Origin: Candidatus Magasanikiibacteriota bacterium
GTDB taxonomy: Bacteria > Patescibacteriota > Patescibacteriia > Magasanikbacterales > JACTTX01
Length of the DNA stretch: 64,000 nucleotides
Reading direction: 5' to 3'
Assembly (NCBI GenBank): GCA_015661005.1
Contig: JACTTX010000002.1
Span: 856-64,855, forward strand
A program made the translations under genes and the position numbers. The notes under the pieces are model-generated. The model had not been told where the DNA came from. It made no database searches and saw only the letters and a list, made by a program, of their open reading frames with translations. Shown here in pieces: positions 3,840 to 57,247 of the stretch; within the stretch, counting starts at the first letter, position 1, and each line of letters begins with the position of its first letter.

Positions 3840-3861
3840 CTTTGTGTCCGCAATTTCATAC

Positions 3862-4512
3862 CTATCTGTTCAACACGGGTCCCAAAATTGCTTTTATCTC
3901 CGCAAAAACATCATCAATGGATCCGGCGGCGTAGATTTTACGCACCAATCCTTTTTGCTCAAAAGCGGCCAAGACCGGCTCGGTATCCGCGTGATAAATT
4001 TTCAGACGTTCGCGAATGGCTGACGGTTTGTCGTCATCGCGCTGAATCAAAGCGCCGCCGCATTTGTCGCAAATCCCTTCCGCGGTCGGCGGATTGGTGA
4101 TGGTGTTATAAACGGCGCCGCATTTCTGACAAGTAAGCCGCGCGGACAAACGTTCCACCGCCACATCATCCGGCAAATCAAGCAAGATAACGTGACTGAC
4201 CGGACGCAAGGCGCCCAAAGCCGCCAACTGTTCGACGTCCCGCGGGTAGCCGTCCAAAATTACGCCGCCGCTCACATCATCTTTGTCCAAACGTTCCGCG
4301 ACAATCCGATTGGTGAGTTCCGATGGCGCCAATTTTCCGGCATTAATGTATTCCTTGATCTTGGCGCCAATCGGCGATTCGTTCTGAATGTGCGTGCGAA
4401 AAAGATCGCCGGTGGAGACGGCGGGAATGCCGTAGGCCGCGGATATTTTTGCGGCTTGCGTTCCTTTCCCTGATCCCTGCGGCCCAATGAGCACGATATT
4501 AAGTTGCGCCAT
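3862..4512 (-). CDS. adk: adenylate kinase with zinc-binding LID
   Basis: P-loop IVLIGPQGSGKGTQA and LID cysteines CQKCG...CDKCG. Confidence 0.92.
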   Translation of the reverse strand: MAQLNIVLIGPQGSGKGTQAAKISAAYGIPAVSTGDLFRTHIQNESPIGAKIKEYINAGKLAPSELTNRIVAERLDKDDVSGGVILDGYPRDVEQLAALGALRPVSHVILLDLPDDVAVERLSARLTCQKCGAVYNTITNPPTAEGICDKCGGALIQRDDDKPSAIRERLKIYHADTEPVLAAFEQKGLVRKIYAAGSIDDVFAEIKAILGPVLNR

Positions 4513-4550
4513 AAATTATATTTTACGATGCGATATAAATTCCGCCGGAT

Positions 4551-4835
4551 TTATTTACTCCGGCGCGTTAAAATTTTTTCCAAAAGTTTTTGCTTGCGGG
4601 CCAGATATTCGTTCGGATAAAGATACAGCAAAATCCTCTGCGCTTTTTCTCCGTAAAGCCAGCGGCCGGAGCGGGCGTGTTTAAGCGCCTCGTAAACGGT
4701 ACCGAAGACGCTGTGATCATCCGTGTGATGATGCTTTGTCCGCGGAAAACCAATCTCAAAAATCCAGCGTTTCAGGTCAATGCTCGGAACGTAGTACATG
4801 GCGTTCAAGGAACCGCGGCGTTTTTCTTCAGCCAT
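4551..4835 (-). CDS. hypothetical small protein
   Basis: 94-aa ORF filling the secY-adk gap, on the same strand as its neighbours; no recognisable motif. Confidence 0.35.
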   Translation of the reverse strand: MAEEKRRGSLNAMYYVPSIDLKRWIFEIGFPRTKHHHTDDHSVFGTVYEALKHARSGRWLYGEKAQRILLYLYPNEYLARKQKLLEKILTRRSK

Positions 4836-4873: not shown

Positions 4874-6151
4874 CTACACGCGGTCGTATTGGCGCATGGT
4901 CAGTTGCGCATCAATCTGATTCACGATTTCAATCGCGACCGAAACCACAATCAAAAGCGACGTGCCGCCGACAACCAATGAACGCGTATGCGTCAAAAAT
5001 TGTTGAACGGCCAACGGCAAAACGGCAATGATGCCCAAAAATAACGCGCCGGCCAAAACAATCCGCACCATCACTTGTCCCAAATAAGCGGAAGTGGCCG
5101 TGCCCGGCCGAATGCCGGGAATGAAACCGCCCTGCTTTTGCAAATTTTCCGCCACTTTGTCCGGCTGAAAAATCACGGCCGTGTAAAAAAAAGTGAAACC
5201 GATGACGAGCAGAAAATAAATCACGCCATAGACCAATTGATTTTGAAAAGTGCGGATGACCCATTCGGCGGCGCTCACAATCCAAGCGGTTTTGGCCTTG
5301 ACCAAAAATTGCGCGATCATCGGCGGAAAAAGAATCATGGAAATGGCAAAGATGATCGGGATGACGCCGGCCATATTCACTTTAAGCGGCAGGAAACTGG
5401 TTGAGGCCGCCGTCATTCTGGTCCCGCGCATCTGCCGCGCATACTGCACCGGAATGTTGCGCTGACCTTGAGTGATGACCACAACGCCAATGATGGTAAT
5501 GAGCGCCAGCGCCACAAAAAGCACCGTATCAAAAAGCTGGGACTGATCATAAGTGGCGTAGAGTTGCTGGGCGTAAGTTGGCAAACTGGAAACAATGCCG
5601 GCAAAAATTAAAAGGGAAATGCCGTTCCCGATTTTTTTTTCGGAAATCAATTCACCAATCCACATCAGAAACATGGTGCCGCCGGTGATGGTGATCATGA
5701 TGGTGATGATTTGAAAGGCCGACAAATCCCCAATGACACCTTGGGCGCTCGTACGCAAAAGCGTAATCATGCCGTAAGATTGAAGAAGCGCCAACGGCAC
5801 CGCCAAAAGACGCGTGTACTGATTGATTTTTTGCTGACCCTGCTCCCCTTCTTTGCCCAACTCTTCAAGTTGCGGCACGATCATTTGTAAGAGCTGAAGA
5901 ATAATGGAAGCGGTGATGTACGGAGCAACGCCCATCAGCACCACGGAAAAATTTTCAAAAGTGCCGCCGGAAAAAATGTTCAAGAGTCCGAAGACCTGAT
6001 TGCTTTCCAAAAAGAGCCGCAACTTCACCAGGTCCACGCCCGGCACCGGAATGTGCGCGACAAACCGAAAAAGCACCAGCATCCCCAAAACAAAGAGGAT
6101 GCTTTTACGCAACTCCGGAACGGTCCAGATTTGTTTAAACTTTTCCCACAT
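4874..6151 (-). CDS. secY: preprotein translocase subunit SecY
   Basis: 425 aa, ten hydrophobic segments, SecY-like N-terminus, and the expected position after L15. Confidence 0.93.
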   Translation of the reverse strand: MWEKFKQIWTVPELRKSILFVLGMLVLFRFVAHIPVPGVDLVKLRLFLESNQVFGLLNIFSGGTFENFSVVLMGVAPYITASIILQLLQMIVPQLEELGKEGEQGQQKINQYTRLLAVPLALLQSYGMITLLRTSAQGVIGDLSAFQIITIMITITGGTMFLMWIGELISEKKIGNGISLLIFAGIVSSLPTYAQQLYATYDQSQLFDTVLFVALALITIIGVVVITQGQRNIPVQYARQMRGTRMTAASTSFLPLKVNMAGVIPIIFAISMILFPPMIAQFLVKAKTAWIVSAAEWVIRTFQNQLVYGVIYFLLVIGFTFFYTAVIFQPDKVAENLQKQGGFIPGIRPGTATSAYLGQVMVRIVLAGALFLGIIAVLPLAVQQFLTHTRSLVVGGTSLLIVVSVAIEIVNQIDAQLTMRQYDRV

Positions 6152-6185
6152 ATATAGAGTAAGTGGGCTGCCTCATAAGCGCATA

Positions 6186-6614
6186 TTATTCCGTTATTGA
6201 CCCACCAGCGCTGATGATCTTTTCTTTAGCGCCCGCTGAAGCCGCCACGCCTTTGACCGCCAACTTTTTTGTCATTGTACCATTCCCCAGCACTTTGACG
6301 CGAGCGCCCAATCCCTTCTTTTTGAGCGTTTCCGGTGAAACAGTTTCGCCATCATTGAAAAGACGCGCGAGCGTATCCAGATCAACAACCTCCGGTCGCT
6401 CCTTTTGTGATTTGACCCCGCGCAGTTTGGGCGTCTGCAAAATATTGCCGCGCATACCCAAAAGATGCAAACCCTTGCGTCCGCCGGTGCGCGCGCGCTG
6501 TCCTTTGGTTCCGCGTCCGGCCGTGGTTCCCAAACCCGTGCCGTGACCGCGCCCAACCTTAAACTTTTTTTTCCTGGCGCCTTTATTTGATTTTAGCGAG
6601 TGCATGGTAATCAT
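6186..6614 (-). CDS. rplO: 50S ribosomal protein L15
   Basis: Gly/Arg-rich N-terminal half (GRGHGTGLGTTAGRGTKGQRAR) typical of uL15. It overlaps the rpsE stop directly, so no L30 gene lies between S5 and L15. Confidence 0.9.
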   Translation of the reverse strand: MITMHSLKSNKGARKKKFKVGRGHGTGLGTTAGRGTKGQRARTGGRKGLHLLGMRGNILQTPKLRGVKSQKERPEVVDLDTLARLFNDGETVSPETLKKKGLGARVKVLGNGTMTKKLAVKGVAASAGAKEKIISAGGSITE

Positions 6615-7192
6615 ACCGTTTGTTTTCTCCGTAACTGTTGAAGCGCTGCAAATGTTGCTCGCACATTATTAACCTTGTTCTTTCCACCCATAATTTTGCT
6701 GGAAATATTCGGCACACCAGCCAATTCCAGCACCACCCGAACCGCCCCGCCAGCAATAACACCCGATCCTTTTGGCGCCGGCATCAATAAAACTTTAGCC
6801 GCGCCGTCTTTGACAAAAGAGCGGTGCGGAATGGATTCATTGATGAGCGGAACGGTGATCACGCGTTTGCGCGCCTGCCGCGCCGCCTTATTGATGGCAA
6901 TGGACACATCTGCGCCTTTGGCCAAACCATAGCCGACGCGCCCTTTGCGATCACCAATGATAATCAAAGCCCGAAAACGCATCCGCTTGCCGCCTTTGGT
7001 CACGCGCGTCACGCGGGAAAGTTCCAACGTTGCTTGATCAAACTCTTTATCTTCCTGTTCACGATCAAACCCGCCGCGGCGTTCACGCCGTTCACGATCG
7101 CCGCCACCGCCGCCTCCCCGCCCCTGTCCGCCGCCACGTCCTTGTCCCGGTCCGCGTCCGCGCTGATTAAATTGTCGTTGAGGTCCTGGCAT
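6611..7192 (-). CDS. rpsE: 30S ribosomal protein S5 with Gly/Arg-rich N-terminal extension
   Basis: uS5 core VTRVTKGGKRMRFRALIIIGDRKGRVGYGLAKGADVSIAINKA, preceded by a ~60-aa RGG/GGQG low-complexity extension. Confidence 0.9.
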   Translation of the reverse strand: MPGPQRQFNQRGRGPGQGRGGGQGRGGGGGGDRERRERRGGFDREQEDKEFDQATLELSRVTRVTKGGKRMRFRALIIIGDRKGRVGYGLAKGADVSIAINKAARQARKRVITVPLINESIPHRSFVKDGAAKVLLMPAPKGSGVIAGGAVRVVLELAGVPNISSKIMGGKNKVNNVRATFAALQQLRRKQTV

Positions 7193-7227
7193 AACAGTTG
7201 AATTGAGAATTGAGAATATGGAAGTGA

Positions 7228-7596
7228 TTAAAATTTCAATCCACCATCGCGGGCGCCGTCGGCTAGGGCGGCGACACGTCCTTGATAAGCAAACCCGCCG
7301 CGATCAAAAACAACAGCGTCAACTCCTTTGGCCAGGGCTTTTTCCGCCAACAACTTCCCGGTCAAATAAGCGGCCGCCACTTTCCCCTTCCGTTCGCCGG
7401 CGTTCCCTTTTAATCCGCGGCTCTCTGCGGCCACCAAAGTTTTTCCAGTAGCATCGTCAATCAATTGCGCCGTAACATAACGCAAACTCCGAAAAACGGC
7501 TAATCGCGGACGGACGGCCGTGCCAATAATCTTGGCGCGCACCCGCTTGTGCCGCCGTTCCCGTTTCATCAATTTTTCTTTGGCCTTTGATTTCAT
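7228..7596 (-). CDS. rplR: 50S ribosomal protein L18
   Basis: uL18 motifs ([18 protein letters not shown]...GFAYQGRV). Start set at the internal ATG (MKSKAKEK, 122 aa) of ORF 7228..7758. Confidence 0.85.
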
Positions 7597-7612
7597 ATTC
7601 CCGCTTAAAACT

Positions 7613-8164
7613 TTACGCCGCTCCGGCCGACTTGGCCGCCTTACCGGCCTTGCGACGAATGACTTCATCCAGATATTTAATACCTTTACCCTTATACGGC
7701 TCCGGCGGACGCAAATGCCGGATTCGCGCCGCCGTTTCCCCAACCAACTGCTTGTCAACGCCGCTCAAAGTAATTATATTCTTCTCAATAACCGCGGCGA
7801 CTCCCGCTGGCAGTTTGAATTCCACCGGATGAGAAAAACCGAGTTCCAGTTTCAAAGCGCTACCTGCCACGGCCACGCGAAAACCAATGCCGTTCACTTC
7901 CAATTTCTTTTCATAACCGGCCGTGACGCCAAGAACCAAATTCTTGACGAGCGCGCCGAACAATCCCCAAAGAGCGCGATTCTTTTTGACCGTCTCATCG
8001 GAAACATGAACATGCAACCCGTCATCTTCTTTAACAACCGTGATATGCGGATGCAAAACCAATTCCAATTTTCCTTTTGGTCCTTGGACGCCAACCTTCC
8101 CATCAGTCAACGTCACGTTGACTCCGGTTGGCACGGCAATTATTTGTTTTCCGATTCTGGACAT
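7613..8164 (-). CDS. rplF: 50S ribosomal protein L6
   Basis: [19 protein letters not shown]...GIGFRV is a uL6 signature; 183 aa. Confidence 0.92.
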
Positions 8165-8165
8165 A

Positions 8166-8555
8166 TTAGTAGACCTCGCAGATCATCTCTCCGCCCAACT
8201 TCTGTTTGTGCGCTTCTTTATTGGTCATCAAACCCTTGGACGTTGAAAGAATAGATATGCCAAACCCGCTCTGCACCACTTTAAGCTCATCCGCCTTAAC
8301 ATAAGCGCGATGCCCGGGCTTGCTGACGCGCTGAATGGAAGTAATGGCTGGCGCGCGTTCCGCATACTTCAGACGAATCCTAATCTGCGCAAATTTATCA
8401 TCCGTTTTTTCCACGCGACCCACATATCCTTCCCGTTCTAAAATCTGCGCGATATTCATTTTTAATTTTGAGTGCGGCAAAACCACCAGCGGCATATGGG
8501 CCTGCTGGGCGTTTCTGATTCTCGTCAACATGTCGGCGATGGGATCGGTCATCAT
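8166..8555 (-). CDS. rpsH: 30S ribosomal protein S8
   Basis: MTDPIADMLTRIRNA is the uS8 N-terminus. Start trimmed to an internal Met of ORF 8166..8672. Confidence 0.88.
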   Translation of the reverse strand: MMTDPIADMLTRIRNAQQAHMPLVVLPHSKLKMNIAQILEREGYVGRVEKTDDKFAQIRIRLKYAERAPAITSIQRVSKPGHRAYVKADELKVVQSGFGISILSTSKGLMTNKEAHKQKLGGEMICEVY

Positions 8556-48791: not shown

Positions 48792-49424
48792 CTACGCCTT
48801 ATTAAACGACGGCGTAGGCAATGCTTTACCCAATATATAAGCAGTGATGACGCCAAGTGTCAACCCGCCGATGATGTCCAACGGATAATGCACACCGACA
48901 AAAATGCGCCCCAGTCCAACCAACGCCGCGGCCAAAATAAACCAACGCCCCAATTTTTTGTCCAAAAAATGAATCGCGAAAGCTAAAGCGAAAGCAACCG
49001 TGGCATGACCGGACGGAAAAGATTTTTCCGCTGGCGATTTTTCTATGAGCTGATGAACACCGGGGAGCGCGACGAACGGCCGTGGCCGAAACTTGAAGGC
49101 GCCAATCATAATATTCACGCCGTAAGCGATGGTCACAATCAAAACGACTTTAACTAAGGTTTGCAAAAAAAAATGCGCACCGAATTTTTTCCAATAGGTG
49201 CACAAAAAAACAATCAGACCTACGCCCATCACCATTATTAAATACTTGGCGAAAAAAATTCCCGCCAAGTCCAAAACACGCAAGCGTCCGGCCAATTCAT
49301 TGATGGCACGGAAAAGAATGATATCAAGAATCATAATTAATATTGTACCACAAAAAAAGAAAACCGGCCTGTCTGGAAAATTATTCCAAAAGAGGCCGGT
49401 GTTGTATGCGGGAAACGCACCCAC
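48792..49424 (-). CDS. PAP2-family phosphatase (undecaprenyl-diphosphatase-like)
   Basis: KFRPRPF, PSGHAT and GRIFVGVHYPLDI form the KxxxxxxRP/PSGH/SRxxxxxHxxxD triad. Confidence 0.8.
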   Translation of the reverse strand: MGAFPAYNTGLFWNNFPDRPVFFFCGTILIMILDIILFRAINELAGRLRVLDLAGIFFAKYLIMVMGVGLIVFLCTYWKKFGAHFFLQTLVKVVLIVTIAYGVNIMIGAFKFRPRPFVALPGVHQLIEKSPAEKSFPSGHATVAFALAFAIHFLDKKLGRWFILAAALVGLGRIFVGVHYPLDIIGGLTLGVITAYILGKALPTPSFNKA

Positions 49425-49995
49425 TCGCGTTCCTGCACACTCTCCTTAGCCGCAGTTGACCCGCCGCGGCAAAAAAGTTACCACCTTCCTGCTTCTGGGG
49501 TGTTCGGTATCAGGCGTCAAAGACGCGGGCGCGTGATGTGCTCCCGAAAGAGCGGCGCGTTTATGGATTGCCGAAACACGAACGATCCTCGACTCAAAGA
49601 TCGCTAAACCGGAACAGAGAAGGTAAGGGGAAAAATTCATACAGCCAGATTCTGATGAGCGGGGACTTAACGGCGCGCAATCTCCTGGAAGTCCTGTGAA
49701 ACATTAGCGGCCAAAACTGTCGTGCCCTCAATAAACCATTTGGAGAACTGGGTCATCAAGATTGTGTGTAAAAATAGTCCGGCCAGCACTCCGCCAAAAA
49801 AAATCGCGATGACGGGCAAGCGTTTATAAACATGGCGCTTGAAAAATTTGTAAAAAAAGAATGGGCGGCGTTTTGATTTCATACGAGGTCTCCGTATGAT
49901 CCACGCTCCCATTCAGCGTCAGACCGATTTTGCGCCTAAATCACGTTAACAAAATATAGTATACCAGAAAAAATCGCTTTTGTCAAAATCTATTT

Positions 49996-50550
49996 TCAAT
50001 CACGATGGCACAAATTGTTAATCTGCTGCCTAATCCCATAACCGCGACAATGTTTCAGCACCCCCAGATACGATTGCAGACTTTGTTCAAACGCTCCATT
50101 TTCCAACAAACCTTGATTAAACTTTTCATATTTAATCTTCAAACGCTTCAATAACCGCCGCTTGGTCTTGGTTCTAAGAATTGTATAATGCGGGAACGTC
50201 ACATAACCCAAAAAATCAACGCCTTGATGCCACTTGCGGAGTACGATTTTTTTAGGGTGTAGCGTTAATTGCAGGTTGCTCTCTAAAAAATCCCGAATCA
50301 TTATGGTAATACTTTCTAAAAATATCTTGCTCCGCGCGATTACCACGATATCATCGGCATACCGAATATAATTTTGAAAGCCAAACCGTTTGGTGATAAA
50401 CTGATCCAGTTCATCGAGATAGATATTTGAGAACAGCTGACTGGTGAGATTCCCGAGCGGTATTCCCTTTCCTGGTTGGTTATGAAAGCTGTATACAATC
50501 TTTTCAATCAGTCCCATCAGCTTTTCGTCAGCAACGCGCCGCCTAATCAC
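49996..50550 (-). CDS. diversity-generating retroelement (DGR) reverse transcriptase, apparently 5'-truncated (motifs 4-7 and thumb only)
   Basis: GIPLGNLTSQLFSNIY carries the DGR-specific xGxxxSQ variant of RT motif 4. Motif 5 YADD (YIRYADDIVVIA) and motifs 6/7 plus thumb are present. The ORF starts with GTG directly after the TR hairpin, with an in-frame TAA four codons upstream. No fingers or motif A (N-terminal palm) region was found. Confidence 0.75.
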   Translation of the reverse strand: MIRRRVADEKLMGLIEKIVYSFHNQPGKGIPLGNLTSQLFSNIYLDELDQFITKRFGFQNYIRYADDIVVIARSKIFLESITIMIRDFLESNLQLTLHPKKIVLRKWHQGVDFLGYVTFPHYTILRTKTKRRLLKRLKIKYEKFNQGLLENGAFEQSLQSYLGVLKHCRGYGIRQQINNLCHRD

Positions 50551-50571
50551 CCCGGCCGTTTAGCGCCGGGG
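50550..50571 (-). promoter_or_regulatory. GC hairpin between TR and RT
   Basis: Minus strand CCCCGGC-gcuaaacg-GCCGGGG lies immediately 3' of the TR and immediately before the RT start, the usual position of the DGR TR-associated stem-loop. Confidence 0.5.
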
Positions 50572-50577
50572 CAAAGA

Positions 50578-50698
50578 CTTCGGGAGAAAGAGACACCAAG
50601 ATTGTCATTGGAGTTGTCCGGTTTCCGGTTGTTGACGTTCGCGCCATCGGCATTGAAGTTGCCAACGTTCACCAGCTTCCCATTAGACGAGCGGCGCT
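50578..50698 (-). repeat. DGR template repeat (TR), non-coding, AAY-codon-rich
   Basis: About 121 bp that is ~75% identical to the 3' ends of genes 50921..53770 and 53782..54747. Read in frame with the VRs it gives RRSSNGKLVNVGNFNADGANVNNRKPDNSNDNLGVSFSRS, with 13 AAC/AAT/AAA/AAG codons. Roughly 30 mismatches to each VR, all but 1-2 at TR adenines (coding strand). Confidence 0.85.
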
Positions 50699-50920
50699 CT
50701 CTACACCTCTCCTATCCAGGGCAAGGACAAGCGGCCAAATAAGGCCGGATGCTGTATGAGCATGTAGCGGCAGCCCGGTCGCCTCAAGCGACCAGATCCG
50801 CATGAGAAAAGTGTAAGCAGTCTTTAGATATTGGCGAGGCGCATCCGTGAACGCGCCTTCATTAGCCGAGATTAGTATACCGAAACCAAATCAAAGTTTC
50901 AAGACTCAAAGTTCAAAGTT

Positions 50921-53770
50921 TCAATGACTGCGGGAGAAAGAGACGCCAAGACCGACATCGGAGTCGCCCGGCGCCCGGTCGCTGACGAGCGCGCCACCGG
51001 CATCGAAGCGGCCAACGAGCACCAGCCCCCCACCAGACGAGCGGCGGTTAGTCCATGTAAACTTATCCTCTAATAAACGGCTGTTAGTTTCAAAATACAT
51101 TAAAAGATCATACAATACTTCGGTCGGCGATTGCCGAGTAAGTTGATTTATTTTTAAGTCACCAAGTTTTTGAGCATACTTTGGCCAGTCACTGCTTTCG
51201 AGCAATACTTGTATCTCCGAATCACTCTTGCCCTGAAAATTTTGCGCGTAATAGCGCTCAAACTCGTCAATGGCGTCTTGATATTCCTGTGGCCTGGCGG
51301 CGGAGTCCTTAAAAACTTCATCAATTACATATCTGACCAGTTCCTGCGTTTGTTGAAGATAGTTCTTACTGGTTGAATTTGGAATATTTTCTTTACTCGT
51401 CAGCGCCCAGCGTACTTCCGACGTGTCGGTTTTATAAAATTTTTCGTTTGGATACCAATCTACTTTATACAGCACTTTTCCTTTCTTGCCTTTTTCAAAT
51501 TTATCTCCCAAAAGTTTATTCATCTTCTTCATGGTCAGCGGAGCATGGTCTGACGTCTTGTCAACGCGAAGCACTAAAAATTGGCCAAGCTCTTTTGCCA
51601 GTTCAAGGTCGGCTTCGGAAAAAGGAATCTCCGGAATTTCCTTGGTGTCCAATTTGATGCCAAAGGTCGCTTCCACCGCCTCTTGGCCCAAAAAATCGGA
51701 ACCCATAATTTCTGCCGCGCGTTCCAAACTGACTTCGTTTTCTTTCCCTTTGCGCCTTTCAGGCATCTTGGCCCCTTGCTTGTACAACGATAAGACGGGC
51801 TCATTGGTATCCTTGGTGACGCCAAGGAACTCATATACTTTTCCATCGGTATGTCTGATAAAATGACCCTCGCGTGCTTTGAAATCAGGCGTATAGCGTA
51901 CCCCGCCGATATCAAGCGAAGTAATAATATACTCTATCCGCTCTCCATCCTCATTCACCAAATAACTTTCAGCCACTTCCGCCTCCTCCGTTAACACCTT
52001 TTCGTATTTTACCCGCGGCGACAAGAGACCTATATCAACGGCTGTTAAATTTTCAAACTGCCGATCTTCATCCCGGGCGGGATTGTCAACATCAATAGCA
52101 AAATTTTTTAAAAATTCTTTTACCAATATTCGATCCTCGTTCGGGTAAGCGGCGCGATCCAAAAATTGCGTTTTTAACTTTTTGCCAATGAAACTTTCTA
52201 AACTCATGGCGCGACCGAGCGCTCCATACTCCTTAAGCCAACCAAGCACGGTGCCTATGTCAATAATTAAATCTTTAACATACTGCGCGTCCCCCTTGGC
52301 CTTTAATACGGTCTCACGATGTGAGAATGATTTGTTCAGCTCGTTTAAGGCATTGGCAAAACGCCAGAGATACCCCCCGCCGTTGGTTAGTTCACGTGTT
52401 TGCACATTCGCTTTCACCATTTTCCCCGCGCGTTCAATATTCTTTTTCTTCTCTTTATAGATATACGCCGGGATCACTTCAGATTTTGCCACGCGCATCC
52501 GTCCATTTTCGTCAATCAACGCGGCGAGCATCATTTCATAAATTTCCGGATCATCTCCGCTTTGTGGCGGATAATCCAAATCAACCTTGGCGAATTTGCG
52601 GAGCACTTCCGGCGGAATCTTTTTGCGCTCATAACGTTGCGAGGCCAAATTAACCATGGCGCAGTAGAGAAAATCCAAAGCGACGGTTACTTCCTCATTC
52701 GTTACCGGCATGCGGACGCGCTTGCCCGGGGTCCAAGCGGCGATCCGCGCCAACCTCTCGGTTTGTTCCGCCGACCCGAGCAGGTTAAACTCGTCATCAG
52801 CCACAATCCGACCGCGGTGCACGGGTTCGCCATCAAGCGTACTTGTTTTCCCCGTTACCGCTTCACCAATTTCCTTATATTCGTAATAAGTTCTGCCATC
52901 GGGAGCAATTTTTGGTTTGGCGATAAGATCTTGGAACCGCACATCCTTGCCGGGCGTTTCGTTATTGACGCGTTTAGTCAGGATGATGGCCGCTTGTTCA
53001 ACTAAACGAGTTTTCCCCGTACCGGATTCACCGGAAAGTAGCACCGGCTTGCCCGAAAGCGCCGCCAATTCCATTTCTTCCAAAAACTCACGACGCGAAG
53101 GCGACCAAATAAAATTATCGCGCCGCAGTTGCCCCGAGTATCCTTTGAGCGTTTCATATTCCACAAGACCGCCGAGTTCGGGATTGGTAGTTACCAAATC
53201 CCGCAGTCGTTCACGATTTGCGGAGAGCTGCCGCTTATTAGTTTCAAACATCAAGACCTCAATCTCATCGGCGGCGCCGCTACGACCCGCAAACATTTGC
53301 CGCACTGATGCGTCAAAAGCATTCTCTGCCACCTTAATTTGCTTGTCTAACGCCAGATATTTTTCATAATTGCCGTTGATTGAATCAATTTCCTTGAGAT
53401 ACCGCTTAGAGCCGACCAGATATGCCTCTCTAGTTTTCTTGTCTTCATATAAATTTTTTAAAATTGACAAGCCATTTTTCATTTTGGAAATTTCCACAGC
53501 GCCCGCCTTGACTTTTCTTCCGCTGACCAAACCCTTGATCTCTTGGAAAGCGGCCCACAGCGATTCTGCTCGCTGTTCGGGAGAAAGATACGAAAAATCT
53601 GCCGTACTTGCAGATATCTTTGCCAGCCCGGAAATCTGGTTGCATTGCTCGATCAACAAACCTACCGGATCACTTTTGATTTTCTCCGGCTTACCTAATG
53701 GCGCTCTCTCCAAACTGCTAAATTGTATTCCTCGTTCTGCCATACGATAAATCAAAGTTTCAAGACTCAA
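50921..53770 (-). CDS. AAA+ (MoxR/AAA_5-like) ATPase-containing multidomain protein with DGR-diversified C-terminal ligand-binding domain
   Basis: 949 aa. Walker A GKPVLLSGESGTGKTRL and Walker B IVADDEFNLL of the AAA_5 type. The C-terminal ~300 aa are paralogous to gene 53782..54747. The extreme C-terminus (...GLGVSFSRSH) is VR1. Confidence 0.75.
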   Translation of the reverse strand: MSLETLIYRMAERGIQFSSLERAPLGKPEKIKSDPVGLLIEQCNQISGLAKISASTADFSYLSPEQRAESLWAAFQEIKGLVSGRKVKAGAVEISKMKNGLSILKNLYEDKKTREAYLVGSKRYLKEIDSINGNYEKYLALDKQIKVAENAFDASVRQMFAGRSGAADEIEVLMFETNKRQLSANRERLRDLVTTNPELGGLVEYETLKGYSGQLRRDNFIWSPSRREFLEEMELAALSGKPVLLSGESGTGKTRLVEQAAIILTKRVNNETPGKDVRFQDLIAKPKIAPDGRTYYEYKEIGEAVTGKTSTLDGEPVHRGRIVADDEFNLLGSAEQTERLARIAAWTPGKRVRMPVTNEEVTVALDFLYCAMVNLASQRYERKKIPPEVLRKFAKVDLDYPPQSGDDPEIYEMMLAALIDENGRMRVAKSEVIPAYIYKEKKKNIERAGKMVKANVQTRELTNGGGYLWRFANALNELNKSFSHRETVLKAKGDAQYVKDLIIDIGTVLGWLKEYGALGRAMSLESFIGKKLKTQFLDRAAYPNEDRILVKEFLKNFAIDVDNPARDEDRQFENLTAVDIGLLSPRVKYEKVLTEEAEVAESYLVNEDGERIEYIITSLDIGGVRYTPDFKAREGHFIRHTDGKVYEFLGVTKDTNEPVLSLYKQGAKMPERRKGKENEVSLERAAEIMGSDFLGQEAVEATFGIKLDTKEIPEIPFSEADLELAKELGQFLVLRVDKTSDHAPLTMKKMNKLLGDKFEKGKKGKVLYKVDWYPNEKFYKTDTSEVRWALTSKENIPNSTSKNYLQQTQELVRYVIDEVFKDSAARPQEYQDAIDEFERYYAQNFQGKSDSEIQVLLESSDWPKYAQKLGDLKINQLTRQSPTEVLYDLLMYFETNSRLLEDKFTWTNRRSSGGGLVLVGRFDAGGALVSDRAPGDSDVGLGVSFSRSH
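50924..51047 (-). repeat. DGR variable repeat 1 (VR1) at the 3' end of the AAA+ gene
   Basis: Aligns to the TR with substitutions confined to positions where the TR has A on the coding strand. A shared non-A difference near the 3' end (GGC/CGC in VR versus GGT/CGA in TR) is consistent with IMH versus IMH*. Confidence 0.85.
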
Positions 53771-53781
53771 AGTTCAAAGTT

Positions 53782-54747
53782 TCAATGACTGCGGGAGAAA
53801 GAGACGCCAAGATTGCCATAGGAGCTGTCCGGCGGCCGGTCGAAGACGCCCGCGCCACCGGCATCGAAGTCGCCAACGTCCACCAGCCTCCCATTAGACG
53901 AGCGGCGCTTGGTCCAAGTGTAATCTGTCTCTAAAATCTTCGTTCCGGTATTTTGAAAATGAATGAGCATATCATACAGAGCGTCAGCCGGAGATTGCCT
54001 AGTAAGTTCATTAAGCTGTAATTCTGAAAGTTCCTTGGCATAACGCTCCCATTCGCTATCTAATAATTGTTTGATTTGCTCGGGTGTTTTGCCTTGAAAA
54101 TTGCGATCATAGTACGTTTGAAATTCATTGATCGCGGCCTGATATTGGGGTGGCAGATCCTGGTCTTTAAAAACTTCTTCAGTCAGATATTGGATTAAGG
54201 CCTGTGTTTGTTCTACATAGTTTTTGCTCTTTGAATCCGAGATGAGAGTCCGCGATGAGAGCGCCCAAGTTGCTTGAGGCGTTTCGGTGGTAAAAAATTC
54301 TGATTTTATTTTCCACCCTTCCTTTGTATCATACAATACCTTGCCCTTCCCGGCTTGGGAAAAATCAGCTTGTAAGAGTTCGTGCATTTTCCGCATGGTG
54401 AGTGGTTGACCATCTGGGGCTTTATCCGCGCGAAGCACTAAAAACTGCCCCAGCTCCTTGGCTCGTTCCAAATCTACTTTTAAAAATGGAATCTCCGGTA
54501 TTTGCTCTCGCGCCAGCCGAATACCGAACGCTTTTTCCACCGCTTCTGGTCCAAAAAAATTCTCCCGACCGATAATTGTTTCGGCCTGTTCCATCGTCAG
54601 TTTCTCGCCTCTTTTAAATTCCGGTTGCTTGTGCTTCTCCGGCCCGCCGAGTTTAGCTACTTCAGCGGTACTTAAAACTTTAAAATGGGACGATAAAGCG
54701 TCTTTAGTAATAACAAATGGTCGGTTTGATTTCAGACCTTCACGCAT
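53782..54747 (-). CDS. stand-alone paralog of the variable C-terminal domain (DGR target 2)
   Basis: 321 aa aligning to residues ~640-949 of the AAA+ protein (FGPEAVEKAFGIRLA...EIPEIPF...AKELGQFLVLR...KNY.EQTQ....DVGDFDAGGAGVFDRPPDSSYGNLGVSFSRSH). Its 3' end is VR2. Confidence 0.7.
   Translation of the reverse strand: MREGLKSNRPFVITKDALSSHFKVLSTAEVAKLGGPEKHKQPEFKRGEKLTMEQAETIIGRENFFGPEAVEKAFGIRLAREQIPEIPFLKVDLERAKELGQFLVLRADKAPDGQPLTMRKMHELLQADFSQAGKGKVLYDTKEGWKIKSEFFTTETPQATWALSSRTLISDSKSKNYVEQTQALIQYLTEEVFKDQDLPPQYQAAINEFQTYYDRNFQGKTPEQIKQLLDSEWERYAKELSELQLNELTRQSPADALYDMLIHFQNTGTKILETDYTWTKRRSSNGRLVDVGDFDAGGAGVFDRPPDSSYGNLGVSFSRSH
53785..53909 (-). repeat. DGR variable repeat 2 (VR2)
   Basis: Same TR-derived segment. 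All mismatches to the TR but one fall at TR adenines. The 3' flank is identical to that of VR1 for ~45 nt (AACTTTGAACTTTGAGTCTTGAAACTTTGATTT after the stop). Confidence 0.85.
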
Positions 54748-54751
54748 AAAA

Positions 54752-57247
54752 CTATGTTATTTTCCGTGGCCGTAATTTTTTAAATTCGTGGACGATATCT
54801 TTACCCAATATCTTTGGCAATTCTGAAAATGAGGATAAAGGCGGAGCGGCGTCGGCGCTTTGGGAAGATCCGCCAATCGTATAACTTCTAACTATCATTC
54901 CCTTAGCCTTTAAGTGCCGATGCTTAGTTTCGGTAGCTTCAAAATCATCGGGAGCGCCATCGGAAATCTCGGCGGTGTAATGAATTGGCTGTTTTTCCAG
55001 TTGAATATTCTTTTGGCGCAAATCCGCTAATTCTTTATCCAAATCGCGCTCAATAAGCTCTAAGGTTTTATGCGTTGGCGTGCCACCGCTCGCGAGCTTG
55101 GTCAGGGCGGAATAAAACGCCCACTGTTCCTTGGGTCCCCATTTATCAGTTAAATGCAGACGCACCTCCCCGGCGTCTGAAGCTAAAGTTACCATAATCT
55201 TTAAAGGGAGTAAATCCGAATCTTCCCCTTCCTGGCGGCCAATGTAGGCGCACTGCATCAAGCCGTCAACGAACAAAAGCGCGACATCGCGCTGGACGTC
55301 CGCTTTAGTGCGGCCGCTCGCCCCGTCCGGCTCGCCCATAGAACCGGATAAATCAAAAGAAAAATAGACATTGATGCCGCCAAAGTGTGTTTCTATTTTC
55401 TCAACCACCTCATCTTTTTCAAAGCCGCCGGGGTTAAACTCGCGGGAACGGATATCAATTGCGGCCTCGACCGGATTTTCCAAACGGTCGCCTTCATCCA
55501 TCCGCACCGGCCCCCGATAATCATGTCCGGCCACTTTGCGCTCTTCCACGATCTTACGCCACTCCTCTTTCACCAGGTCGCTGATAGACACGCCGGTTTC
55601 ATCTTTAATTTCCCGCACGCGATCGAGCGCTCTTAAAAATTTCCGCGCTTGTTCAGGCGTACATTCGGCCAGCTCCGAAAAGTGTTCTTCGACAACGTCA
55701 AAACGCGATTTTTTCTTTTCTCCCCCGCCACCGGCTTCTTTCTTTTTTAGATCCTTTAATTGTTTTTTAGCTTCATCCGCGGATGCCAACTCTTCATCAG
55801 GATGTTCATAGTCGCCCTCGCCGGTTTCGCCTTCTAGATCACGTTTCTGTTCATCTTCATCAATCGTCGGATCGCCTTTTGGCGTTGCGTCTAATTTGAT
55901 CGCCCGACGACTTTGGCCGTCCCAAACTTCGAGCCAAGCGTGGCCGTTGTCGGCGTGCATAATCGCGTCACCATCTTCCGTCCGGTCTTTGACATAAAAT
56001 CCGGTGACATAACGAAAATCTTTATCTATCTCAAGAAGCGCACGACAAGCAAGATCATTAGCAATCTTGCAGTCCGCCTCTTTTTTCTCCCAAATACGGT
56101 TAAAATATTCAGCGGGTCTGGCGCGATAATAACGGTATGCTTCCGGACTGTTAGAATATTTCAAAGAGTTGTGAATTAGCTTAACAATTTCTCTTTTCAG
56201 TTTAATCTTAGGAAACCGCTTGGCTTTTAGTTCTTCAATTTTTACTTTCAGGTCATTAGGGATTTCACCGGTCATCCCGACCTCTCTGAATTTTTCCGTT
56301 TCCCCAATGTATAACCGACGCCCGGCTCGCAGATTATATTGGGACACACCGGCGGCGCTGATACGCAGATACCACAAACCGTCCTGGTTTCTTGAAAGTT
56401 CAGCTGATCCTTCGGGAGCGTCAGTTTGCAGATTTTCTGGATCAAACACCCAATCGTCGGGCAGGGGCAAAGATAGGGGTTCACCGCCGCGAATTTTTCC
56501 GAAAAAAACTTTGGCGGTAGATATTTCAAAAGATTCAGGCCCGGCTTCGCTAAACTTATTTTCTTCTTTGCTCCAGCGGCCGCTTTCAACATCAAAATTT
56601 TCAAATACCAGTTGCTTGTAATAACCACCAAAAAATGGTTTGACACGAAAGAGCGGTGTGGGCGGACCTTCTTTTTTCTCTCTTCCTGTTTCCATTGACG
56701 ATCTCGCCTCTTCACTGGTTGACGGCACATCATTTTCGTCCGGTTCAGATTCTTTTTCCTCCGCTGGGACTTCAGGCGCTTCTTTCGGTTTGGCCAAATC
56801 GGTCAGATCGCGGTCAGCCAACCATTCAAGCGCCGTCTTAATTTGTGTATCGTAAATTTTCCGCTTTAAATTCCAGGAAACATCCGTGTTGGTTAGTGTT
56901 TCAAAGACGTTGATATACCCACCCCTTGTTTTTACGTTCGCTAACGGTTGTATGAACTTCAAAACCCGAACATTAACGTCTTTAAGATCAATTAATTGTT
57001 TCTGCGCCAGACAAGCCCCCAAGGTATACAAAAACTGATCGGTTAAAGGTAGCCCGCTGTCGCTCGGGGCAGGCGCTACTCCCTTCATGGCGCTTTCGAC
57101 TAAACGGCGAACGGCATGAGGTACTTCTTGTTTCCAAATCAGATACTCCTCGGCATCGGTAGCGTCTTTAAATTCAAAAGCCGCCGCCTCTTTGCCGGTT
57201 TCAATGGTTGCAATTATGGGTCGTTTTCCTTCTCCGCGTTCAGGCAT
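54752..57247 (-). CDS. transglutaminase-like cysteine protease domain + von Willebrand factor A (vWA) domain protein
   Basis: 831 aa. TGase-like triad context CKIANDLACRALLE...HAWLEVWDG. vWA MIDAS motifs VYFSFDLSGSMG and ISDGAPDD. Lies 4 bp upstream of the paralog gene on the same strand. Confidence 0.75.
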   Translation of the reverse strand: MPERGEGKRPIIATIETGKEAAAFEFKDATDAEEYLIWKQEVPHAVRRLVESAMKGVAPAPSDSGLPLTDQFLYTLGACLAQKQLIDLKDVNVRVLKFIQPLANVKTRGGYINVFETLTNTDVSWNLKRKIYDTQIKTALEWLADRDLTDLAKPKEAPEVPAEEKESEPDENDVPSTSEEARSSMETGREKKEGPPTPLFRVKPFFGGYYKQLVFENFDVESGRWSKEENKFSEAGPESFEISTAKVFFGKIRGGEPLSLPLPDDWVFDPENLQTDAPEGSAELSRNQDGLWYLRISAAGVSQYNLRAGRRLYIGETEKFREVGMTGEIPNDLKVKIEELKAKRFPKIKLKREIVKLIHNSLKYSNSPEAYRYYRARPAEYFNRIWEKKEADCKIANDLACRALLEIDKDFRYVTGFYVKDRTEDGDAIMHADNGHAWLEVWDGQSRRAIKLDATPKGDPTIDEDEQKRDLEGETGEGDYEHPDEELASADEAKKQLKDLKKKEAGGGGEKKKSRFDVVEEHFSELAECTPEQARKFLRALDRVREIKDETGVSISDLVKEEWRKIVEERKVAGHDYRGPVRMDEGDRLENPVEAAIDIRSREFNPGGFEKDEVVEKIETHFGGINVYFSFDLSGSMGEPDGASGRTKADVQRDVALLFVDGLMQCAYIGRQEGEDSDLLPLKIMVTLASDAGEVRLHLTDKWGPKEQWAFYSALTKLASGGTPTHKTLELIERDLDKELADLRQKNIQLEKQPIHYTAEISDGAPDDFEATETKHRHLKAKGMIVRSYTIGGSSQSADAAPPLSSFSELPKILGKDIVHEFKKLRPRKIT

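Follow-up and report, generated by a model that had tools for sequence, protein, structure and literature searches.

DGRs with an inactivated reverse transcriptase (RT) and intact TR/VR pairs have been known since 2012 (PMC3521204). In the DiGReF survey, Schillinger et al. (2012, PMC3521204, Fig. 4) recorded inactivated RTs accompanied by TR/VR mismatches at adenines only, and read them as cases of very recent inactivation. Among the DGRs of CPR bacteria, target proteins with P-loop/Midasin-type AAA ATPase domains have been described (Wu et al. 2018, PMC5758913), and the 949-aa target protein reported here is of this kind.

In this study, we analyzed a 64-kb stretch of DNA (hereafter the window) that contains a canonical chromosomal DGR of Candidatus Magasanikbacteria (CPR/Patescibacteria) with two target genes, each bearing a C-terminal VR, and with a truncated RT gene. 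In all probability, the truncation was caused by a single clean deletion of ~840 bp in a canonical CPR DGR that was recently disabled. The locus adds one more example to a known phenomenon, ordinary decay; it is not a new kind of enzyme, and it reveals no minimal or split RT.

Organization of the DGR locus

The minus strand of the window carried, in order, a transglutaminase-like gene (57247..54752), a 321-aa target gene (target 1, 53782..54747), a 949-aa target gene (target 2, 50921..53770), a non-coding spacer, the template repeat (TR), a hairpin, the RT remnant, an 81-aa ORF, and a PAP2 gene. An enolase gene that seemed truncated among the listed ORFs was set aside, as it runs past the end of the window. 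Target 1 was recognized as an ORF and by synteny with a 340-aa target in the related locus L005 and a 324-aa target in L062, and it ends with VR2 (~53909..53783). Target 2, annotated as a 940-aa AAA_5 protein and also syntenic in L062, ends with VR1 (~51046..50922), so that both VRs lie at the 3' ends of coding genes. The 949-aa protein had a Pfam AAA_5 match (6.9e-08) and belongs to a family of ~940-aa proteins distributed across Patescibacteria.

The VR ends, together with ~35 nt past both target stop codons, were 100% identical over 58 nt (50945..50888 vs 53806..53749), and the genes of the 321-aa and 949-aa targets could also be aligned at the nucleotide level over the stretches encoding their C-termini. 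Given this shared stretch and alignment, the two targets are paralogues, and the duplication that produced them took in the 3' flank. The short target occurs alone in L005, and both targets are present in L062. On the other side of the locus, the best promoter-like match of the region (TTGACA-17-TATACT with an upstream TG, 11/12; 49986..49958, minus strand) was located just after the RT remnant, where it precedes the 81-aa ORF (49912..49667, minus strand), which has a hydrophobic stretch.

The reverse transcriptase remnant

The RT ORF (49996..50550, minus strand) comprises 184 codons, starts with GTG, and encodes LGNLTSQ at residues 32-38; four codons before its start, the loop of the hairpin at 50571..50550 contains an in-frame TAA (50562..50560). 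Its product was an exact match to GenBank MBF8280357.1, encoded on a 73.9-kb contig of a Candidatus Magasanikbacteria MAG, and showed 47-71% identity to the listed relatives, many of which come from Patescibacteria MAGs. The retained portion includes LGNLTSQ with the SQ dipeptide and YADD, as in DGR-clade RTs, the sequence pattern KWHQGVDF, and the C-terminal (thumb) part. A full-length member of the RT set, P0005, aligned to the Bordetella phage bRT (PDB 8ub7) over residues 7-267 with E = 1.7e-39, and the assignment to the DGR RT family is therefore secure.

The fingers and motifs 1-3, including the motif-A aspartate, were absent. The Pfam RVT_1 match of the ORF was confined to profile positions 117-203 of 205, and in a BLASTP alignment its residue 1 was paired with residue 130 of P0005 (315 aa), immediately past motif A ('CDIRKFFDSVD' / 'CDIRKFFDSVDQEILLSI'). 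Likewise, only positions 130-311 were matched in a 313-position RT HMM built from 59 full-length relatives. These results confirm the sequence-only reading of this DNA, which had described a 184-aa ORF with a GTG start, LGNLTSQ near its N-terminus, a stop codon four codons upstream inside the hairpin, and neither N-terminal fingers nor motif A, and which had proposed a profile HMM alignment as a check on where the match begins. Two further claims of that reading, that RT motifs 1-3 are encoded in none of the three frames across the TR or the spacer and that no Avd-like ORF is present, also stood in the six-frame translation of the 64 kb. The N-terminal half of the RT was found there neither by tblastn nor by an HMM of that half (best E 0.22 in the window vs 6.8e-60 for the L005 positive control), and an Avd HMM built from 39 sequences found no counterpart of the accessory protein (Avd/bAvd) that the intact members of the clade possess (best E 0.79 vs 1.8e-46 for the L005 control). 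The 81-aa ORF was rejected as a candidate Avd, with no match to the Avd HMM or to Pfam, and it did not resemble the 102-aa ORF located after the L005 RT.

The bRT requires Avd, and a palm without the motif-A aspartate is unable to catalyse synthesis. Because the motif-A aspartate, the fingers, and Avd are all gone, the locus should be unable to make cDNA alone. We infer that the 184-codon ORF is a gene fragment, devoid of the fingers and of one of the three catalytic aspartates, which cannot polymerise on its own. The case calls for caution, as the locus scores as a DGR on TR/VR criteria and its protein bears the name reverse transcriptase in GenBank, yet on this reasoning it cannot work alone.

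A deletion relative to syntenic relatives

The closest relative of the locus, L062 (GenBank JAUSJV010000062.1), shared 79% nucleotide identity with the window over 6673 nt. Collinearity began at 57202, within the transglutaminase gene, took in both targets, the spacer, the TR, and the hairpin, and broke off exactly at 50549. Past the equivalent of that base, L062 reads 'TTTCTTTTTACTTG...' with a T-run and enters the 3' end of avd on the opposite strand, after which the contig ends. The closest RT (71% identity) was that of L005, in which positions 3848-4352 matched 51064-50549 of the window and positions 5217-5592 matched 50522-50147. After its hairpin, L005 continues with a T-run, bAvd (4359-4658, minus strand), an intergenic region, and the RT from ~4805, and homology with the window resumes at 'ATTAGG' (L005 position 5192, window 50547), which is the IR of the RT sequence 'IRRRV'. 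Thus, ~840 nt are absent from the window: the T-run, the complete avd gene, the intergenic region between avd and the RT, and the first ~129 codons of the RT. The junction lies at 50548..50549 (+/-1 nt, minus strand), with TR-hairpin sequence on its left and RT codon ~130 on its right. The breakpoints shared homology of at most 1-3 nt, and no flanking repeat was found in L005. The intact layout, in which avd directly precedes the RT in divergent orientation, was present in at least 35 relatives' loci.

Among the options that the sequence-only reading had placed side by side, a decaying cassette whose VRs retain past diversification is the one borne out by the comparison with these two relatives. 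In the relatives, avd is encoded on the other strand, so that it converges with the TR and diverges from the RT. A single deletion would have taken avd, the intergenic (promoter) region, and the 5' part of the RT together, with its left breakpoint at the base of the 3' arm of the hairpin, at the cost of the T-run, and its right breakpoint ~10 codons past motif A. With both RT and Avd gone, the cassette would no longer be able to diversify itself, and both VRs would be frozen in their last state.

The template repeat as a putative transcription unit

The TR (50572..50698, minus strand) is 127 nt long and rich in adenine (28 A within its 116-nt core, 50696..50581). VR1 is separated from it by the non-coding spacer or leader (50699..50920, minus strand), which the sequence-only reading had rightly recognized as a spacer; its length is 222 nt rather than the 210 nt given there. 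The spacer is conserved in relatives, being ~71-72% identical to those of L005 and L006 and collinear with that of L062. A promoter-like site, TTGAAA-17-TATACT (50874..50902, minus strand), just downstream of VR1, is positioned for a transcript of the leader and TR and may serve as its promoter. Its counterpart in L005 lies at 4008-4035, and TTGAAA-N16/17-TATACT follows the VR in both the window and L005. Directly 3' of the TR, folding predicted a GC hairpin (50550..50571, minus strand) that corresponds to the intrinsic-terminator stem-loop of the relatives, here without the T-run. In at least 10 relatives' loci, the TR is followed by a GC hairpin and a T-run, and the hairpin sequence varies with the stem kept. 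A scan of 49400..51300 against Rfam matched no family, and the window hairpin was not called as a terminator.

In the clade, the TR unit seems to consist of a promoter-like site after the VR, a leader of ~180 nt, the TR, and a GC hairpin with a T-run facing the 3' end of the convergent avd. Elements of it were observed at 50902..50550 (minus strand) in the window, at L005:4008-4352, and in the TR 3' flanks of L012, L015, L017-L021, L029, and L043. This arrangement suggests that the TR may be transcribed separately, as a short unit convergent with avd, with putative promoter and terminator roles for the two flanking elements.

TR/VR differences and timing of the loss

In the 116-nt core, VR1 differed from the TR at 23 of the 28 TR adenines and VR2 at 16 of the 28, and each VR differed at only one of the 88 other positions. 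The sole non-adenine change is common to both VRs and falls at the same site, 50595, in the invariant IMH/IMH*-like 3' block. The differences are thus restricted to adenines as in DGRs, and the combination of a disrupted RT with TR/VR sequences free of non-adenine drift is that of a 'recently dead' DGR as defined previously (PMC3521204). Since the TR and VRs differ essentially at TR adenines only, and since all 184 codons of the remnant are still open, these results indicate that the loss is recent. With the locus unable to make cDNA by itself, the VRs would record past diversification. The deletion itself would likewise be recent on an evolutionary scale, as would the loss of activity. Each target protein found in the protein collection comes from a single contig.

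Damaged DGRs and misleading entries among relatives

Other RT lesions were identified in at least six of ~42 Patescibacteria relatives (species-representative genomes). A different deletion in L012 removes the 5' part of avd and RT profile positions 1-39, the RT of L049 is truncated N-terminally at profile position 111 (L049:2837-3652), and a Gribaldobacteria MAG (L059) shows an in-frame loss of profile positions 124-213, including SQ and YADD (L059:5827-6639). In addition, L015 has a single in-frame stop at profile position 117 (L015:4340-4342), and the RTs of L043 and L050 contain frameshifts. Because the RT breakpoints differ among the relatives, there is no conserved split architecture.

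In L012 (MAG H51-bin222_1; 5237-5485 and 5453-8236), the 5'-truncated avd is joined directly to RT profile position 40, and the RT frame is open for 928 codons from stop to stop, as if the RT stop had been lost or the RT had been fused to the downstream gene. A recurring split RT, represented by entries of 180-200 aa starting at the same residue, was also considered and rejected, as the contigs revealed gene-calling artefacts: an N-run and an internal start call account for P0052, a frameshift within a T-run for P0019, and a contig edge that cuts the gene for P0023. Many public RT entries of 180-200 aa that start just past motif A (P0019, P0023, and P0052; loci L007, L004, and L001-L003) are such gene-calling products and not real short RTs.

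The repeat at the TR position of L005 (L005:4206-4330, equal to L006:988-1112), between the spacer and the hairpin, is adenine-poor, with 7 A vs 25 in the TR of L062. It has 24 differences from the L062 TR, 18 of which fall at TR adenines, and the same sequence is present in two assemblies. Its IMH-like end carries a VR-type base, reading CCCGCAGTC in place of CCCGAAGTC. The TR of L005 has the look of a sequence overwritten through mutagenic homing or VR-to-TR conversion. In that case, this cassette would be unable to diversify, even though its avd is present and its RT gene retains the 5' half that the window has lost.

Alternative explanations

An artefactual origin of the junction was evaluated with a second assembly. 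L008, a 1360-nt MEGAHIT contig (ENA analysis ERZ27247315) that encodes the identical 184-aa protein, matched window 50945..49586 at 99.85% without gaps and spanned the spacer, an identical TR, the hairpin, the junction, and the whole remnant; its two mismatches, at 49685 and 49627, are far from the junction. A one-off assembly artefact is thus unlikely, with the independence of L008 being partial. The sequence-only reading had listed an assembly or indel artefact among its options, and in its broader form this explanation holds that the truncation is an artefact or a minority allele, and that the dominant genome has an intact avd-RT between 50549 and 50548. It is true that DGR repeats often break or confuse short-read assemblies, that L008 itself ends inside the 58-nt stretch common to both VR ends, and that several short RT database entries are artefacts. 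However, the junction in the second assembly is identical and gap-free, and the relatives' breakpoints, with their minimal homology, offer no long or collapse-prone repeat. Moreover, unique sequence can be joined only where reads span the junction, and at least part of the population therefore has the deletion. The protein collection (a 5.8-billion-cluster database) contained no protein above 71% identity to the RT, so that no intact allele had been assembled in it. In JGI metagenome contigs, two scans for exact matches, one to the 3' end of the TR and one to the hairpin, found no other alleles. An intact avd-RT in the dominant genome is very improbable. Still further from credible is a genuinely split or minimal RT, also among the earlier options, in which the 184-aa protein would work alone or with a separately encoded N-terminal half. 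An intact ORF with a possible GTG start would suit such an enzyme, but the other half was not found in the window, no clade of relatives shares the split (the breakpoints of L012, L049, and L059 all differ), and the look-alike short entries are due to N-runs, frameshifts, and contig edges. Furthermore, the start codon lies within the hairpin stem, the RT's own upstream region is deleted, and the lack of the motif-A aspartate is incompatible with catalysis by established knowledge of polymerases.

The deletion may also be real, and the cassette still diversified in trans by a full-length RT and Avd that are encoded elsewhere in the genome or on a co-resident element and recognize the TR RNA. 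This explanation would also accommodate the lack of drift at non-adenine positions in the TR and in both VRs, the 184-codon remnant that is still open, and the promoter-like site and hairpin retained by the TR, and several DGRs occur in ~10% of completed DGR-containing genomes (Wu et al. 2018, PMC5758913). If true, an orphan TR and its two targets would still be serviced, and the locus would be a natural case of trans-complementation in a DGR deprived of its own RT and Avd. Nevertheless, no second RT or Avd was found within the 64 kb, and the protein collection, as noted above, holds no closer RT. The components of DGRs largely co-evolve as a cassette (Wu et al. 2018, PMC5758913), so that cross-recognition by a diverged RT and Avd is not a given, and recent inactivation accounts equally well for pristine repeats (PMC3521204). 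We therefore regard diversification in trans as unlikely, although less so than the two explanations above, and retain the recent single deletion as the preferred explanation.

Comparison with known systems

The DGR of Bordetella phage BPP-1 (bRT-Avd; PDB 8ub7) resembles the present locus in the SQ motif, YADD, the adenine-specific differences between TR and VR, and the IMH-like 3' differences. In BPP-1, however, avd, TR, and brt follow one another on one strand, whereas the TR in the clade of the window is apparently a unit of its own, with a hairpin and T-run, and convergent with avd. Residues equivalent to those of bRT up to ~153 are missing from the window.

The DGRs of CPR/Patescibacteria (Roux et al. 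2021, 'Clade 2'; Wu et al. 2018, 'CPR set', category g1, UVR4) are from the same host phylum. They share with the present locus the presence of several targets per TR and, as seen in one of the window's targets, an AAA_5 ATPase domain upstream of the C-terminal VR. In the intact relatives, the RT measures ~300-320 aa and avd is divergent from it, whereas the copy in the window has neither Avd nor the RT fingers and motif A. Together with the lesions in at least six of the ~42 relatives, this locus adds to the evidence for a noticeable damaged fraction among CPR DGRs.

The closest parallel is provided by the inactivated DGRs of Schillinger et al. (2012, PMC3521204), in which a truncated RT likewise stands beside TR/VR pairs that differ at adenine sites only. 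Those examples arose by nonsense mutations, frameshifts, and IS insertions, whereas the window shows one deletion of ~840 nt covering avd, the intergenic region, and the 5' half of the RT. The locus thus provides a base-resolved example of DGR loss in which one deletion takes avd and the RT 5' half together.
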